In this document: piece after piece, positions 1 to 50,122 of the stretch | How positions within the stretch are numbered: the stretch's first letter is position 1 | How the letters are laid out: every line of letters begins with the position of its first letter | Sequence record: NC_048845.1 | Length of the DNA stretch: 52,092 nt | Origin: Escherichia phage flopper | Direction: 5' to 3' (one strand) | Notes under the pieces: generated by a model | Databases searched by the model: none | Told to the model about the DNA's origin: nothing | What the model saw: the letters and a program-made list of their open reading frames with translations, nothing else | Position numbers and translations under genes: made by a program

Positions 1-19
1 TCCAACTAATGTTTCAGAA
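1..19 (-). promoter_or_regulatory. conserved intergenic motif copy at the window edge
   Basis: TCCAACTAATGTTTCAGAA. Confidence 0.3.
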
Positions 20-46179: not shown

Positions 46180-46830
46180 TTATTCCTGGTTGGTCAGAGC
46201 CTTCCAACAAATTGGGAACAGTTCTGACATGATTTTATTCACTTCTTCCGCAAACAAGCGAACTTCGTATTGCGCATGTTCGGAGGAACGTTGATTATAC
46301 ATAGATGCCCAGCCATAAAGTGAGCCAGTCCAAATCCATTCAGTCATCATGGATTGTGGAAGAACCATGCGAGCTTGCTCTGGGGCAATCCCCAAACCAA
46401 TTAACGTTTCATACTCTGCGATGCAAGCCTTGTTATGACTTTCCATGCGATAATGAATATCGTCAGCAAAATCTTGTGGCAACGGTTGTGCAGTCTGAGT
46501 CATCAACTTCTCAGGACGACCGAGTACAACATCTGGTACAAAGCATTCAATCGAGATTGCTTCACCATCTTTGTAACGACGGCTAACCTCATTCCAACTA
46601 AAGCCAGTTTGATGTTTGCCGAGCTGACGTGCAATGAAGATTGGAGCTTTGCAACGCAATGTTACCTGTGCGTGGCGAAACGGCGTAATGTGCTTATGCT
46701 TTGCAAGAAACTCAATCAGCCTCTCGTCACGTAAAGATATTTCATGCGATTCTGCACCATAAGAAACTCGTGCAGCATTAACAGTTGTGAGGTCGCTGCC
46801 CATGTGGTCAACGAGTGTTGCAGTAATCAT
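46180..46830 (-). CDS. thyX: flavin-dependent thymidylate synthase (ThyX-like)
   Basis: 216 aa with ThyX-like core (FRHA...ARQLGKHQTGFSWNEVSRRY); the RHR motif is slightly degenerate. Confidence 0.7.
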   Translation of the reverse strand: MITATLVDHMGSDLTTVNAARVSYGAESHEISLRDERLIEFLAKHKHITPFRHAQVTLRCKAPIFIARQLGKHQTGFSWNEVSRRYKDGEAISIECFVPDVVLGRPEKLMTQTAQPLPQDFADDIHYRMESHNKACIAEYETLIGLGIAPEQARMVLPQSMMTEWIWTGSLYGWASMYNQRSSEHAQYEVRLFAEEVNKIMSELFPICWKALTNQE

Positions 46831-46886
46831 TTGCTCTCCGGTTCATATGGTGGGAGATTAATTAGCTCCGCACCATGATAATGGTA

Positions 46887-47117
46887 TTATTTTAATGACG
46901 CCTGAATTTCTTTCATCGACGCATTTAGTACAGAACGCTTTTCATATTCGCGTTGATTGTACGTGTTTGTCAGTGCTTCCGCAGCTTCTATTGACAAGAT
47001 TGCAAAACCACCAAAGGCATTGCGAACTTCTTCAATATCCATGTGCAGGACTTCACTGGTAATTTGGCTGGCTATTACGGCCTTATAAATCTCTTCGGCA
47101 ATTTCAGCAGTTTTCAT
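46887..47117 (-). CDS. hypothetical protein
   Basis: 76-aa ORF. Confidence 0.4.
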   Translation of the reverse strand: MKTAEIAEEIYKAVIASQITSEVLHMDIEEVRNAFGGFAILSIEAAEALTNTYNQREYEKRSVLNASMKEIQASLK

Positions 47118-47374
47118 GTTTCTCTCCAGTTAAAAATTTAAGTAAGTGTCCTGACGTGGACTATTACGAACATTACAAAACATTGGCTTAAATGATGTTT
47201 CCACTGCGGCCAAGACACTTATTAAATTTGATTCGAACCGCCCAAGTGAATCAGCCTTGTTTATGGGGACCATCGGGGAAAAGTATAAACCCGCTTAATG
47301 CTCGCATCATGTTTGAACATTAAGAACCCTCGACTTGCATATTTCATGTGTATAGGAACATAGTCTGGATTTTG

Positions 47375-47393
47375 AATCCAACTAACTTCGGGA
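47375..47393 (-). promoter_or_regulatory. degenerate copy of the conserved motif
   Basis: gAATCCAACTAActtcggg. Confidence 0.25.
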
Positions 47394-47962
47394 TGAGGAG
47401 TAACCCAAACGAAAGCCTGAACTTTCTTTCTGCACAACACAATCAGCGCAACTAAGCCGTATCGCTACGGTATGCCAGACGCTCTCTTGAGCCTTTTGAA
47501 CAGAGGCATAACTGTTGGAGGAAATTGGCGGGCACGTGACTGACACTTTGCACATCATGGAAGACGTTTTGCAACACATCTTCTAGTGACTGACATTTGC
47601 ACTAGCCCATTGTTCGGGGGATTCACTGGAATCGAACCAGTCAGGTCGTTTCACCACGGTCAAGCCCGTACATACGAAAATCCCATTGAATTTGGTGGCC
47701 GATACGTTGGCCAGACGCTGTGGCCTTTACGCGGCCAACGTGCCATTAATGCTGGCAAGACAGAGCTAACGTTCTCAAGCACTTTGTCTAGGTATGTTCC
47801 CGGCCACTGTTCTAGGAAGTGACTACCTGAACTTTCTCGCGTTCAATACGAGGCAGCAATTTTAATTGTTATGCCCAGAGCAATTGCAGGAGTTACACCT
47901 GCCATACCACAAGTGGCTAGAGTCTCGTTATTTAAAGTCGCGCACTCCCTCGACTTGTTCAC

Positions 47963-48172
47963 TCACTGTCGGGTAAGTTGAGAACACTTTTGTGCCCACG
48001 TTTCATTGTGGACTAAAATCTGTGTTTTGGTTTCGCGTGATAAGATTTTCACTTCTGCAACATTCAAATAAATTGGTTGTGCAATCAAGCAGTAATCACT
48101 TACGAACCCACTTTGAGAGCAACTCACTATCGACATTGCTATCAGAACTGCTAGACACTTCTTTCTGAACAT
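47963..48172 (-). CDS. putative o-spanin (outer-membrane lipoprotein, Rz1-like)
   Basis: 69 aa; signal plus lipobox-like MFRKKCLAVLIAMSIVSC; starts inside the 3' end of the upstream TM-protein gene in another frame. Confidence 0.45.
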   Translation of the reverse strand: MFRKKCLAVLIAMSIVSCSQSGFVSDYCLIAQPIYLNVAEVKILSRETKTQILVHNETWAQKCSQLTRQ

Positions 48173-48332
48173 GCGATTTAATCTCGATAGATTCTTTTAA
48201 TGAATCTAGTTGCTTCTCTGTGGCTTCCTGACGCTCCTCGGCTTTGCCTGAGCTTTTGCCTTTGAGGAACACTGCAATAAGAATACCAAATGCAGTCAGG
48301 ACGCCAAGAATTACTGATTTAAGCTGTTGCAT
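48096..48332 (-). CDS. putative i-spanin (Rz-like), short
   Basis: 78 aa with N-terminal TM helix (VILGVLTAFGILIAVFL) then charged helical domain; AAGGTG RBS. Confidence 0.45.
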   Translation of the reverse strand: MQQLKSVILGVLTAFGILIAVFLKGKSSGKAEERQEATEKQLDSLKESIEIKSHVQKEVSSSSDSNVDSELLSKWVRK

Positions 48333-48340
48333 AAATCACC

Positions 48341-48481
48341 TTAGATGGCACACGCACCGCTTGAGCAGTCATTATCGCCAGCACCAGGAACGATTGCTTC
48401 TTCGTCCTGCTTCTTCTTGAGTTCTTCAATTGCTTCTTCGGCAGCACCGAAGTCCAAATTGTCTAGTGCATCAATGTCCAT
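48341..48481 (-). CDS. 45-aa peptide with RNR large-subunit-like C-terminal CxxxxC tail
   Basis: MDIDALDNLDFGAAEEAIEELKKKQDEEAIVPGAGDNDCSSGACAI; GGAG RBS 5 nt upstream; the tail DCSSGACAI resembles the E. coli NrdA C-terminus CESGACKI; stop lies 8 nt before the i-spanin ATG. Confidence 0.4.
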   Translation of the reverse strand: MDIDALDNLDFGAAEEAIEELKKKQDEEAIVPGAGDNDCSSGACAI

Positions 48482-48509
48482 GAGGACTCCATGTTATTGT
48501 TGAAAGTGG

Positions 48510-48602
48510 GTGGACGAGGTTGGATTCGAACCAACGACACATCTGTCGAACAGATTGCTCTACCTGACTAAGCTCTGGAGCAGACCTTCTGAGCTACTCG
48601 TC
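48510..48602 (-). tRNA. tRNA-like element (canonical acceptor stem and T-arm; internal arms non-canonical)
   Basis: Minus strand: GGACGAG / CTCGTCC 7-bp acceptor, U8-A9, GCUC D-stem start, T-arm GTTGG-TTCGAAT-CCAAC; ~93 nt. One fold gives a class II tRNA with anticodon loop GUCAGGU (CAG, Leu); another gives a 5-nt loop hairpin. Confidence 0.4.
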
Positions 48603-49038
48603 CAAATTGGGTGGGTTTTGATAACGCAGGTTTTCCCGAACTGCGAGGCTTGTAGAATCTGTGAGCCGCCTACTGTGTTTTGACATAACGTGGGATTGAT
48701 GGTCCCGACTCACTTCATCTCAGGTACGAGGCACTACTTTGCGAGTGCAAGCAGGTGTTGAACCCAAGTACCAACAGGCAACCTAACTTATCCCACCTTT
48801 GTGGGCATCATTGGTTTGAGCAGTTTATTTCCATGCTCAGGGCAACTCACTTTAGGGTGAATTAGGTTACGCAGTGCAGCTTCGAAGTCGCTGCCACAGG
48901 CTTGAGATTCCTGTGTGGAGGGAAATCCAGAGGAGCACTTCCTCAAGGAGTTACGTTTCAAATTGGCATAGCTTCTCACACTAAACCAATTGAAGACATT
49001 CCAGTGTGCTCGTCCGTCCTCTAGAAATATCCAACTGC

Positions 49039-49234
49039 ATAATTAAGTTTGTACTCTGGTAGGAGATGCCACATAATATTTTAGGCTCCGCGCTCTCCAA
49101 CACTACCAATCATGAGTGCACCAATCTTGGCGAACAACACCAGAATACAAATTAATAATTAAGTTTGTACTCTGTCACATCCCCACGCGCACTGGAGGAC
49201 TTAAGCCTGCATTGCATCGCAGAATACAAATTAA
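49039..49234. repeat. direct repeats in non-coding region (aattaagtttgtactctg x2; agaatacaaattaat x2)
   Basis: Copies at 49039-49058 / 49154-49173 and 49141-49155 / 49219-49234. Confidence 0.5.
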
Positions 49235-49703
49235 TTATTGCTCCGATTTATTAATCACATCTCGAAGCCACAATGCGCCAAATTTGGTTACGTGGGATTG
49301 GAAGACCACGGAGAGGACTTAAATTTAATTAAGCCGCAACTCGCATTTCAGAATCATTTGCATTTATTTTAAATGAATAAAACAGTCGCAATAACTTCGG
49401 GCAGTTTAGGCCCGTCGTAAGACTCAGAAAACTACTTCAATTTGTACACAACAAATTTCCCAACATTGCCTTCCGTCGAAGGCTCATGCACTGGTGTTTG
49501 AATTATGCACAAATTGAAATAACTTCAATGAACACTCTCGTCTGGGCCATGAGCTTGGGCATCGGCCTTCCTCCCAACTCTAATCACAAGAATGCTCATT
49601 GAAGCCCACTCTTCCTTTCAGAGTGGGTTCAAGGCAGCACCGGAAAACTTCCAGTGCACGCCAGATCGATTTAGCTTAGTCTCTCAAGTTTGCCATCGGC
49701 AAC

Positions 49704-50042
49704 TTAGAATACCGGAGCTTCTTCAACAGCAGCTTCGGCAGCTTCGGCAACACTTGCGTCAGCAACTTTAGCTTCTTTCGGAGTATCGAACTTAGTACGC
49801 TCAACTTCCGGCTCGCCAGCTTCAACCCACGGCAGGTAGAATGCCAGGAACTGCTCGATGGTGTTCTTCTGCATGGAGCGAGAACGGTCGATAGCACCAA
49901 CGGTGTTCAGGTACGCTTCGGCAGCTTTCTCAATTTTAGCACCGTTTTCCAGTTTGAAGTCATGTGCATTACATTCTGCTTCGGTCAGGAACAGGGAACC
50001 ATCGTTAGCTTCGTACTGAGTTACGGTTACAATCTTAGCCAT
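49704..50042 (-). CDS. hypothetical early protein with acidic C-terminus
   Basis: 112 aa; AAGG RBS; C-terminal EAKVADASVAEAAEAAVEEAPVF. Confidence 0.5.
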   Translation of the reverse strand: MAKIVTVTQYEANDGSLFLTEAECNAHDFKLENGAKIEKAAEAYLNTVGAIDRSRSMQKNTIEQFLAFYLPWVEAGEPEVERTKFDTPKEAKVADASVAEAAEAAVEEAPVF

Positions 50043-50122
50043 TTGTATATACCTTATATTGAATAGTTTTGCACGCCACGGTGACGTGACTTAGATAAAA
50101 ATTAAAGAGCCTTTCTCTTTCC

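Follow-up and report, generated by a model that had tools for sequence, protein, structure and literature searches.

What does a phage encode in a stretch that is kept between the same genes in all annotated relatives and holds no real protein gene? This question is raised by the gap at 47962-47118 on the minus strand of Escherichia phage flopper (NC_048845.1), whose sequence was analysed as one stretch of 52,092 nucleotides (nt), hereafter called the window. On one side, the gap adjoins the stop codon of the o-spanin gene (47963-47965), and on the other the start of a gene for a protein of 76 amino acids (aa; 46887-47117), which is the first of a block encoding ThyX, primase/helicase, and DNA polymerase. 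An original prediction, made from the letters of the window alone, had noticed short dispersed repeats and an element resembling the T-arm of a transfer RNA (tRNA) in this gap, and had suggested structured non-coding RNAs or decayed tRNA genes. Our comparison with related phages indicates that the gap is probably a minus-strand locus for a large non-coding RNA with a complex fold, specific to Chaseviridae-like phages.

A conserved, non-coding gap

The 3.3 kb surrounding positions 47118-47960 matched 177 phage records, the best of which were phiEcoM-GJ1-like myoviruses with a T7-like RNA polymerase (Chaseviridae, Carltongylesvirus), at 90-97% identity. All genes of the window lie on the minus strand, and the same orientation is seen in phiEcoM-GJ1 and its relatives. 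The gene order of spanin, a gap of 0.9-1.5 kb, small gene, and ThyX is kept in all annotated relatives, and the spanins of those relatives share only 30-54% amino-acid identity with the spanins of the window. The gap is unannotated in most GenBank records, and a few records carry short "hypothetical" open reading frames (ORFs), with strand and place varying by record. The flanking proteins (the two spanins and families without an assigned function) gave no hint of the role of an RNA. Homologous gaps were gathered from Carltongylesviruses (loci L001-L003 and L008-L015), from the further Chaseviridae Faunus, 4HA13, and PM1, and from the Loessnervirus phages Berlingot, Fifi44, and Y2; Aeromonas phage phiA050, Pantoea phage SSEM1, and uncultured relatives from IMG/VR and metagenomes were also compared.

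A position-by-position conservation map across the Chaseviridae divides the gap into four parts, of which A and C are conserved, B is variable, and D is kept in shape:

47693-47955, minus strand: domain A, the conserved 5' structured domain (approximately 260 nt)
47522-47692, minus strand: linker B, a variable mosaic of cassettes (approximately 170 of the 845 nt)
47229-47521, minus strand: domain C, the conserved 3' structured domain (approximately 290 nt)
47134-47229, minus strand: hairpin D, a stem of approximately 20 base pairs (bp) with a branched top of approximately 55 nt, defined by inverted repeat I5 and the window fold

The gap is non-coding. Mechanically called ORFs reach 78 aa, but 12 close relatives showed no third-position substitution bias in the gap, in agreement with the earlier statement that no convincing ORF is present. 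Variable sites at the three codon phases numbered 20, 20, and 18 in domain A and 14, 17, and 18 in domain C, versus 40, 30, and 130 in ThyX and 7, 6, and 25 in the 76-aa gene. Across genera, the insertions and deletions have lengths that are not divisible by three, and no frame in the gap is free of stop codons. The sequence is nevertheless under purifying selection: among the close relatives, 16% of the sites in domain C are variable, less than in ThyX (31%), whereas this proportion reaches 61% in linker B. Domains A and C are both conserved in at least five genera, and the blocks of domain A match at 15-20 of 20 positions between genera. The poor conservation and lack of conserved structure among relatives that would speak against a functional RNA were looked for across the Chaseviridae and were not seen.

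In the collections searched, the element is restricted to this phage family. A covariance model of the 3' part of domain C (model R1) recovered all 31 Chaseviridae-like loci (E <= 3e-5, the weakest on a truncated contig) and matched none of 17 unrelated ThyX-encoding phage loci. A scan with a 17-base motif, which covered IMG/VR, metagenomes, and 185,579 genomes, yielded 11 IMG/VR loci, all on contigs of 52-57 kb, and seven genuine metagenome loci; it recovered Chaseviridae-like contigs only, and the remaining matches were at chance level or belonged to an unrelated repeat. A wider distribution was considered and discarded, with 50 genome matches consistent with chance and approximately 30 contigs, mostly from metagenome Ga0194135, carrying the unrelated repeat. 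The latter element (...AAAUAUUUUU-GAAATATGCAAGTTAAGGGTT-CAGTTACAAGTCACAAGTTTCAG..., for example in L110, L112, and L149-L155) is highly repeated in one sample and shares the search motif by chance. None of the 4227 Rfam models matched the gap, and nothing reached the gathering threshold anywhere in the window.

Two structured domains supported by covariation

The earlier proposal of a structured non-coding RNA, which was to be checked by covariation against related phage genomes, is borne out by the cross-genus conservation of domains A and C together with compensatory changes in both. The structural elements of domain C are as follows:

47521-47517, minus strand: CCUCC at the 5' edge of domain C
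47515-47490, minus strand: 5' H-type pseudoknot H1/H2
47478-47471 with 47341-47334, minus strand: long-range helix H3, pairing CUGGCAUA with UAUGCAAG
47470-47457, minus strand: GNRA hairpin H4
47426-47411, minus strand: H6
47408-47388, minus strand: H7, with the near-invariant loop CUCCUCA
47381-47365, minus strand: H8
47330-47261, minus strand: three-way junction in which H11 encloses H9 and H10
47259-47229, minus strand: 3' H-type pseudoknot Ha/Hb

In a MAFFT alignment of 19 sequences, 27 well-aligned pairs of domain C were paired in 92.4% of cells, versus 79.2% in shuffled alignments (reached in 0 of 500) and 33-49% when the partners were slid. Compensatory changes occurred at 13 of these 27 pairs, and the covariation score was 0.419 versus 0.175. 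Individual helices behave in the same way. Seven stem variants were observed for H1 (e.g., ACAG/CUGU and GUGG/CCAC), six for H2 (e.g., UGCC/GGC and UUCU/AGAA), and six for the GNRA hairpin H4. The long-range helix H3 joins CUGGCAUA and UAUGCAAG, the two most conserved motifs, and shows a joint change from C-G to U-A in four sequences. H10 and the pseudoknot Ha/Hb were recovered in all 23 distinct sequences by per-sequence stem finding.

Domain A consists mainly of a succession of hairpins:

47955-47922, minus strand: hairpin P1 with the invariant motif UUUAAAUAACGAGAC
47917-47906, minus strand: hairpin P2
47902-47886, minus strand: hairpin P3
47845-47828, minus strand: hairpin P4
47823-47803, minus strand: hairpin P5
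47801-47790, minus strand: hairpin P6
47776-47763, minus strand: hairpin P7
47757-47741, minus strand: hairpin P8
47712-47693, minus strand: terminal hairpin GGCC-AACGUAUC-GGCC followed by ACCA, at the 3' end of domain A

Pairing in domain A was kept in 93.6% of cells, versus 83.9% in shuffled alignments (0 of 500 reached this value) and 22-43% with slid partners, and compensatory changes were found at 11 of 25 pairs. Hairpin P2 alone occurs with eight distinct stem sequences among the relatives, and relatives with a longer domain A contain an additional covarying pseudoknot, identified by inspection.

The covariation is strand-specific. In domain C, columns 278/358 form G-U in 9 of 19 sequences and columns 186/208 form U-G in 10 of 19, and in domain A, columns 195/206 form G-U in 7 of 14. 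Read from the opposite strand, these frequent G-U pairs would become A-C mismatches, and we therefore place the structure on the gene-sense strand; that is, the RNA sense is the minus strand.

Several other candidate pairings were discarded. Two T-arm lookalikes in domain C, GGUUCGAAUC (47239-47230) and UUGGAUUCAAAAUCCAG (47381-47365), turned out to be parts of the pseudoknot stem Hb and of hairpin H8. An acceptor-like pseudoknot at the 3' end of domain A, with an 8-bp helix CGUUGGCC/GGCCAACG, was given up in favour of the simple terminal hairpin, since relatives change GGCC...GGCC to GACC...GGUC. A long-range GGU/GCC pairing in domain A that was proposed by RNAalifold is invariant and conflicts with the covarying hairpin P8. 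Realignment with model R1 did not mend the register slips at H10 and Ha, which the seed alignment already contained, and per-sequence stem finding was used for them.

A linker of tRNA-shaped cassettes

Linker B, which separates the two conserved domains, is built of modules that start with G and mostly end in NCCA, separated by short spacers such as AAUUCAAU, in which a U precedes the next module (...CCA-AAUUCAAU-GG...). In the window it contains two cassettes, X and Z:

47617-47684, minus strand: cassette X, GGGAUUU-(36 nt)-ACUGG-UUCGAUU-CCAGU-GAAUCCC, with no encoded CCA
47641-47625, minus strand: T-arm of X, ACUGG-UUCGAUU-CCAGU, with a perfect 5-bp stem
47526-47608, minus strand: cassette Z, cloverleaf-shaped and ending in GCCA
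47602-47586 and 47553-47536, minus strand: the two copies of the Z repeat GUGCAAA(G)UGUCAGUCAC, identical to the main repeat of the original prediction
47583-47560, minus strand: hairpin GAAGAUG/CGUCUUC between the two copies

Cassette X corresponds to the T-arm element noticed earlier. The T-arm, with its UUCRAnY-type loop, and the 7-bp acceptor stem (GGGAUUU/GAAUCCC) are indeed present; they read on the minus strand (47684-47617), and 36 nt separate the two. The D-arm and anticodon arm are absent, as had also been stated: the internal 36 nt form one 4-bp helix carrying a single hairpin and contain no anticodon loop. ARAGORN found no tRNA genes in the window, and the Rfam tRNA model RF00005 (gathering score, 29 bits) did not match at X, the sole match, well short of the threshold, being to tRNA-Sec (17.4 bits, E = 6.7). 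The T-arm of X is identical to that of a tRNA-Cys(GCA) located at the same position in PM1 and in IMG/VR locus L018 (46-47 bits, Rfam), which fits the idea of a decayed tRNA gene for this element. Among the other GenBank phages, X was found only in PO103-1 and Ecp_YSF, and it is cleanly absent from PYps3T. The reading that best fits the sequence of X is that of a tRNA relic or of a derived mini-tRNA-like module.

Cassette Z was compared among Carltongylesvirus, Loessnervirus, and PM1. Its homologues in Berlingot and PM1 retain both 17-18-nt repeats unchanged, whereas the middle arm differs in sequence and is still paired (GGUG/CACC; AAAGGUCG/CGACUUU) and the closing stem GGGC/GCCC is replaced by GGCCC/GGGCC. 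With both repeat copies invariant, and with changes in the intervening arm and the closing stem that preserve their pairing, the comparison argues that the repeat is a functional motif, of which the cloverleaf-shaped RNA displays two copies. L015, DE15, TH24, and PO103-1 lack Z.

A third tRNA-shaped cassette, Y (approximately 95-105 nt), is absent from the window and was found in L001 (3776-3872, RNA sense), L094, L020, and L018. It contains the conserved segment UAGAGUUAAKUAAAC, always has NCCA after the acceptor stem, and its 7-bp acceptor stem covaries (GGAUUCG/CGAAUCC, GGAGUCG/CGACUCC, and GCGCUCG/CGAGUGC). Neither ARAGORN nor Rfam recognised it. The cassettes are thus modular in their distribution: the window carries X and Z; GJ1, Y and Z; PO103-1, X and Y; DE15 and TH24, Y only; PYps3T, Z only; and L015, none. 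In L015, domain A runs directly into domain C, and the two together measure approximately 560 nt. True tRNAs also occur in linker B of the relatives, namely tRNA-Cys in PM1 and L018, a 37.8-bit tRNA in L020, and another true tRNA in Loessnervirus relatives.

As a separate observation, phiA050 (L005), L156, and PM1 (L007) contain a minimal tRNA-like module ending in ...GAGGUUCRAYUCCUCGGCUGCCACCA, with a perfect T-arm, an acceptor stem, CCA, and a short interior. Its 3' end may resemble that of the E. coli transfer-messenger RNA (tmRNA).

The original prediction had given weight to three repeats, all of which are real. The main pair, GTGACTGACA(N)TTTGCAC, lies at 47536-47553 and 47586-47602, CCTGAACTTTCT at 47416 and 47826, and GCCAGACGCT at 47474 and 47710, and each occurs at its two sites only in the whole 52-kb window. 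The region contains seven exact repeat pairs of at least 10 nt, versus a mean of 0.44 in 300 dinucleotide shuffles, of which 0.7% reached seven, and 2% of the shuffles reached the length of the 12-mer repeat. In the RNA sense, the two shorter repeats (AGAAAGUUCAGG and AGCGUCUGGC) each have one copy in domain A and one in domain C, positioned inside P4 and H6 and beside helix H3. Outside Carltongylesvirus, both copies of AGAAAGUUCAGG differ and AGCGUCUGGC persists in domain C only, and we ascribe no role to either. Thus, although the features first described exist, they are not the core of the locus: the main repeat and the T-arm lie in the variable linker, the least conserved part of the gap, and are absent from some relatives, whereas the conserved RNA is formed by the flanks.

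Hairpin D and transcription signals

Domain C is followed by hairpin D, which stops 6 nt upstream of the Shine-Dalgarno sequence of the 76-aa gene, a distance seen in all genera:

47115-47127, minus strand: Shine-Dalgarno sequence GGAGAG and ATG of the 76-aa gene

Equivalent long stems of other sequence were found at the same place in Faunus, phiA050, PM1, L019, L020, L022, Berlingot, Fifi44, L144, and L156. In the window fold, the Shine-Dalgarno sequence is not sequestered by D. The RNase III sites of T7-group phages consist of approximately two turns of double-stranded RNA between the cistrons of a long transcript, and the classical stems contain internal loops. Approximately two turns of double-stranded RNA between cistrons are likewise present in D of the window and in the 10 relatives from other genera. 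D resembles the T7-group sites in its inter-cistron stem of approximately 20 bp, its position within a same-strand transcript, the retention of shape over sequence, and the presence of a T7-like RNA polymerase; it differs from the classical sites in its branched top (approximately 55 nt) and its more perfect stem. We propose that D may be an RNase III-type processing site.

On the minus strand within the gap, neither a sigma-70 promoter nor an intrinsic terminator was found, and the locus is therefore probably read through from upstream. According to the ICTV profile, the promoters of Chaseviridae have not yet been identified. A candidate phage promoter at 47377-47385 on the minus strand, an exact copy of the phiEcoM-GJ1 core TTAGTTGGA, was rejected because all aligned close relatives read TTAGCTGGA (TTAGCTGTA in PYps3T) and other genera have an unrelated sequence that keeps hairpin H8. 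This copy is probably fortuitous. The core itself, which is that of the "putative phage promoters" annotated in phiEcoM-GJ1, occurs in eight exact minus-strand copies in the window (1-9, 3984, 8384, 42176, 46593, 47377, 50126, and 50458), versus approximately 0.2 expected per strand from the length, and six of the eight have the longer form (C/A)ATTAGTTGGA. A T7-type-like promoter in domain A, CGACTTTAAATAACGAGA, was also discarded; it is single in the window, and its shorter core showed no enrichment (23 matches versus 17.6 expected).

Comparison with known RNAs

Complex conserved folds are very seldom found in bacterial or phage RNAs that exceed 500 nt; besides rRNA, those known comprise group II introns, GOLLD, ROOL, OLE, and a few more. 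GOLLD (Weinberg et al. 2009; cryo-EM in PMC12286853) and ROOL, both large and ornate, occur in phages and prophages near tRNA islands and form RNA-only cages (PMC12286853, PMC5737381). GOLLD measures several hundred nt and is pseudoknotted, with structured domains connected by a linker. This linker is variable and sometimes carries phage tRNAs, and only the 3' region of GOLLD is universally conserved (PMC12286853), whereas ROOL has a mean length of 581 nt, contains multistem junctions and pseudoknots, is often located near tRNAs, and has no known protein partner (PMC5737381). In architecture and context, these two appear to be the closest analogues of the RNA described here. Like GOLLD, the locus is phage-encoded, in this case by a virulent phage, and its domains A and C flank a linker with tRNAs or tRNA-shaped cassettes; unlike GOLLD, in which the 3' region alone is universal, both flanks are conserved, and the carriers are virulent enterobacterial phages that have a T7-like RNA polymerase. 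Like ROOL, A and C without cassettes measure approximately 560 nt in L015; unlike ROOL, which has not been described with embedded tRNAs, the locus contains them in some relatives, and the taxonomic range also differs. The GOLLD model gave no match at its gathering score, none at E <= 10 in positions 46800-50100, and none in 12 relatives (E <= 0.1-1), and ROOL showed no sequence similarity, its covariance model matching neither the window nor the relatives. Because the covariance models do not match, the sequences do not support membership of either family.

Stable RNAs beside phage tRNAs are familiar from T4, whose tRNA cluster has the co-transcribed species 1 and 2. Linker B resembles phage tRNA arrays in its head-to-tail modules (G...NCCA) with short spacers, an arrangement that fits RNase P, and in the true tRNAs that relatives carry in the same slots. 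It differs in that X, Y, and Z are recognised by neither ARAGORN nor Rfam, and most of the locus (A, C, and D) is not tRNA-like.

Cassette X also recalls the tRNA-like domain of tmRNA, in that its acceptor stem and T-arm are accompanied by a single helix where an anticodon arm would be, and the same genome has a tmRNA-like tag frame in a neighbouring gap (described below). Unlike tmRNA, position 3:70 of X is G-C rather than G-U, and X lacks both an encoded CCA and a tag frame; neither ARAGORN nor Rfam gave a tmRNA match in this gap. A further likeness concerns the plant-virus element TYMV_upPK, since the H1/H2 pseudoknot adjoins tRNA-shaped, CCA-ending modules; the match to this model in L019 (28.9 bits) lies below the gathering score of 38. 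The pseudoknot here follows the tRNA-like module, unlike that of TYMV_upPK, and belongs to a DNA phage rather than an RNA virus, and the likeness is most likely a convergence of a simple fold. Group I and II introns had no Rfam match in the window, and the gap lies between complete genes, with no host gene interrupted.

The literature considered on phiEcoM-GJ1-like phages, which comprised the ICTV profile and the accounts of ST32, 4HA13, and Tiny, with the original phiEcoM-GJ1 description outside its scope, does not mention the RNA and reports at most one tRNA-Arg. We rate the RNA as a new class of the kind "large ornate phage RNA associated with tRNAs".

Proposed mechanism and alternative explanations

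A large, family-specific RNA made from the minus strand is the explanation that we favour, and its life cycle may be pictured as follows. The locus would be read together with the surrounding genes, and linker B, which joins A and C, would offer tRNA genes and tRNA-shaped cassettes a place to land. The tRNA-shaped cassettes would be excised by RNase P and the 3'-end tRNA-processing enzymes of the host, and host RNase III would cut D, parting the RNA from the downstream ThyX/replication mRNA. Domains A and C would then build up as a stable, folded RNA, in one piece (necessarily so in L015) or in two. Our best guess as to the product, made by analogy with GOLLD and ROOL and with low confidence, is an abundant, largely protein-independent RNA particle acting on the host tRNA or translation machinery in the course of infection. 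More tentatively, we can envisage that A and C make up a novel class of giant ornate RNA, the first to come from E. coli phages that can be grown and engineered with ease, which together with the tRNA-shaped passengers and the neighbouring tmRNA-like RNA might form a toolkit for reprogramming or protecting host translation (e.g., by serving as a decoy or cage for ribosomes, for tRNA-processing enzymes, or for defence nucleases that target tRNAs, or by acting as a ribozyme).

Several points weigh against this explanation. We infer transcription, processing, the RNA ends, and the action of A and C as one particle. Pairing between A and C was not found, and A and C may therefore be two separate RNAs instead of one particle. 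The single-sequence folding energy is unremarkable (z = -0.48). MAFFT slips in variable hairpins, with the consequence that H4, H10, Ha/Hb, and D rest on per-sequence stem finding and not on column statistics. All sequences belong to one phage family, and this relatedness inflates the shuffle control, the slid-partner control being the fairer one. Furthermore, the analogy with GOLLD and ROOL is architectural only, as the covariance models of these two gave no match and neither has an established function.

Among the other explanations, the one that survives best is that the gap serves the replication operon (the 76-aa gene, ThyX, and primase/helicase) in cis, as a leader or a platform for processing, which would govern mRNA stability, processing, or translation and would not function as a free RNA. 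Such a leader would suit the position of the gap on the same strand as all the genes, with no promoter or terminator of its own and the same gene block always downstream, as well as the short distance between D and the next Shine-Dalgarno sequence and the conservation in domain C of the anti-Shine-Dalgarno-like CCUCC and CUCCUCA. We nevertheless consider it unlikely, given that a conserved, pseudoknotted structure of approximately 550 nt far exceeds known bacterial leaders, that D leaves the Shine-Dalgarno sequence free in the window fold, and that no riboswitch or leader family was matched in Rfam. In addition, the tRNA genes and CCA-ending cassettes in the middle of the locus imply that the transcript is cut upstream of C.

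A decaying island of tRNA genes, in which the relics no longer have a function, is more doubtful. It would account for X, which has only the acceptor stem and T-arm left at a site where relatives have tRNA-Cys or another tRNA, and which is rare and dispensable, and it would account for the high variability of linker B (61% variable sites). However, it is applicable to B alone, approximately 170 of the 845 nt, whereas A and C are not tRNA-like, show compensatory changes, and are both kept better than ThyX (for C, 16% versus 31% variable sites). Even within the linker, the covarying stems and invariant motifs of Y and Z across genera argue for function over decay.

A replication origin or a structured primer RNA upstream of the replication genes, comparable to ColE1 RNA II or a T7-like transcription-dependent origin, seems slightly less probable again. 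The G-U-dependent, strand-specific covariation indicates an RNA, not a DNA element, and the direct repeat of Z, which as a conserved sequence would be a candidate protein-binding site, is missing together with its cassette from several viable relatives. The ORF-free block does lie beside ThyX, a T7-type primase/helicase, and DNA polymerase, and D and its surroundings are A+T-rich, but the GC skew is monotonic, with no turning point in the window, and lends no support, and 0.7 kb away there is another gap that is similar in size. Finally, unannotated small protein genes, suggested by ORFs of 59-78 aa and by the "hypothetical protein" annotations in the gap of a few relatives, are very improbable, as there is no codon periodicity, every frame is broken by indels and stop codons across genera, and the annotated ORFs change strand and position between records.

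If the favoured reading of the gap as the locus of a large non-coding RNA holds, the role of large ornate tRNA-associated phage RNAs would become directly testable. The role of GOLLD and ROOL is still unsolved partly because these RNAs are known largely from prophages and metagenomes, whereas the RNA described here is found in virulent coliphages that are available from culture collections (among them phiEcoM-GJ1, ST32, 4HA13, and Mangalitsa), and the natural variants with no, one, or different cassettes provide ready-made controls. The annotation of approximately 70 deposited genomes, in which this stretch is now blank or filled with spurious short ORFs, would also be corrected.

Neighbouring elements

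Mobile insertions are concentrated in the neighbourhood of the gap, making it a hot spot. Genes for free-standing HNH homing endonucleases lie beside ThyX or the o-spanin gene, at a site differing by relative (L001, 417-860; L002, 1041-1493; L003, 2726-3172; and L009, 768-1220), and the HNH insertion of DE15 is at the o-spanin end of the gap. Locus L009 (PP952070.1) is deposited as "Staphylococcus phage Pel53" with the label Staphylococcus hyicus; it is a typical Carltongylesvirus that in this region is 80-95% identical to coliphages, and its host label looks doubtful.

The second gap of the window (approximately 48600-49700) contains a tmRNA-like tag frame at 49361-49329 on the minus strand. 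This frame, GCAAAUGAUUCUGAAAUGCGAGUUGCGGCUUAA, reads GCA AAU GAU UCU GAA AUG CGA GUU GCG GCU UAA, encoding ANDSEMRVAA and a stop codon, and in most relatives it is closely preceded by UUUAAAAUAAAU. The frame persists from genus to genus in the Chaseviridae, with synonymous changes and with the small variants ANDSEMRMVA, ANDNEMRAVA, ANDSEIRVAA, and ANDNEMRAAA; in L019 the peptide is ANDNYALAAA, again followed by a stop codon, which we take to be close to the E. coli tag. Sub-threshold Rfam matches to alpha_tmRNA and tmRNA_permuted, the two-piece form of tmRNA, recur in four genomes (the window, L018, L019, and L020). ARAGORN detected no tmRNA in the window, and the tag peptides were not found in the literature searched. 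From its sequence, the second gap looks like an unrecognised phage tmRNA-like gene, and the tag frame strengthens the view of both gaps as translation-related RNA gene islands.

A tRNA-like gene at 48510-48600 on the minus strand has approximately 20 extra nt in the D-arm region and scores 27.9 bits against RF00005, whose gathering score is 29. It is annotated as "tRNA-Arg, may contain an intron" in phiEcoM-GJ1, and ARAGORN calls it Leu or Ser in relatives, in which its score is 42-46 bits. Just upstream of the tag frame are two 19-nt inverted repeats with 84% complementarity (49433-49451/49503-49521 and 49523-49541/49586-49604), which may be long helices of the second-gap RNA. The second gap also contains direct repeats, with two copies each of ATAATTAAGTTTGTACTCTG and CAGAATACAAATTAAT(A/T)ATT (49029-49058/49145-49174 and 49141-49160/49220-49239).

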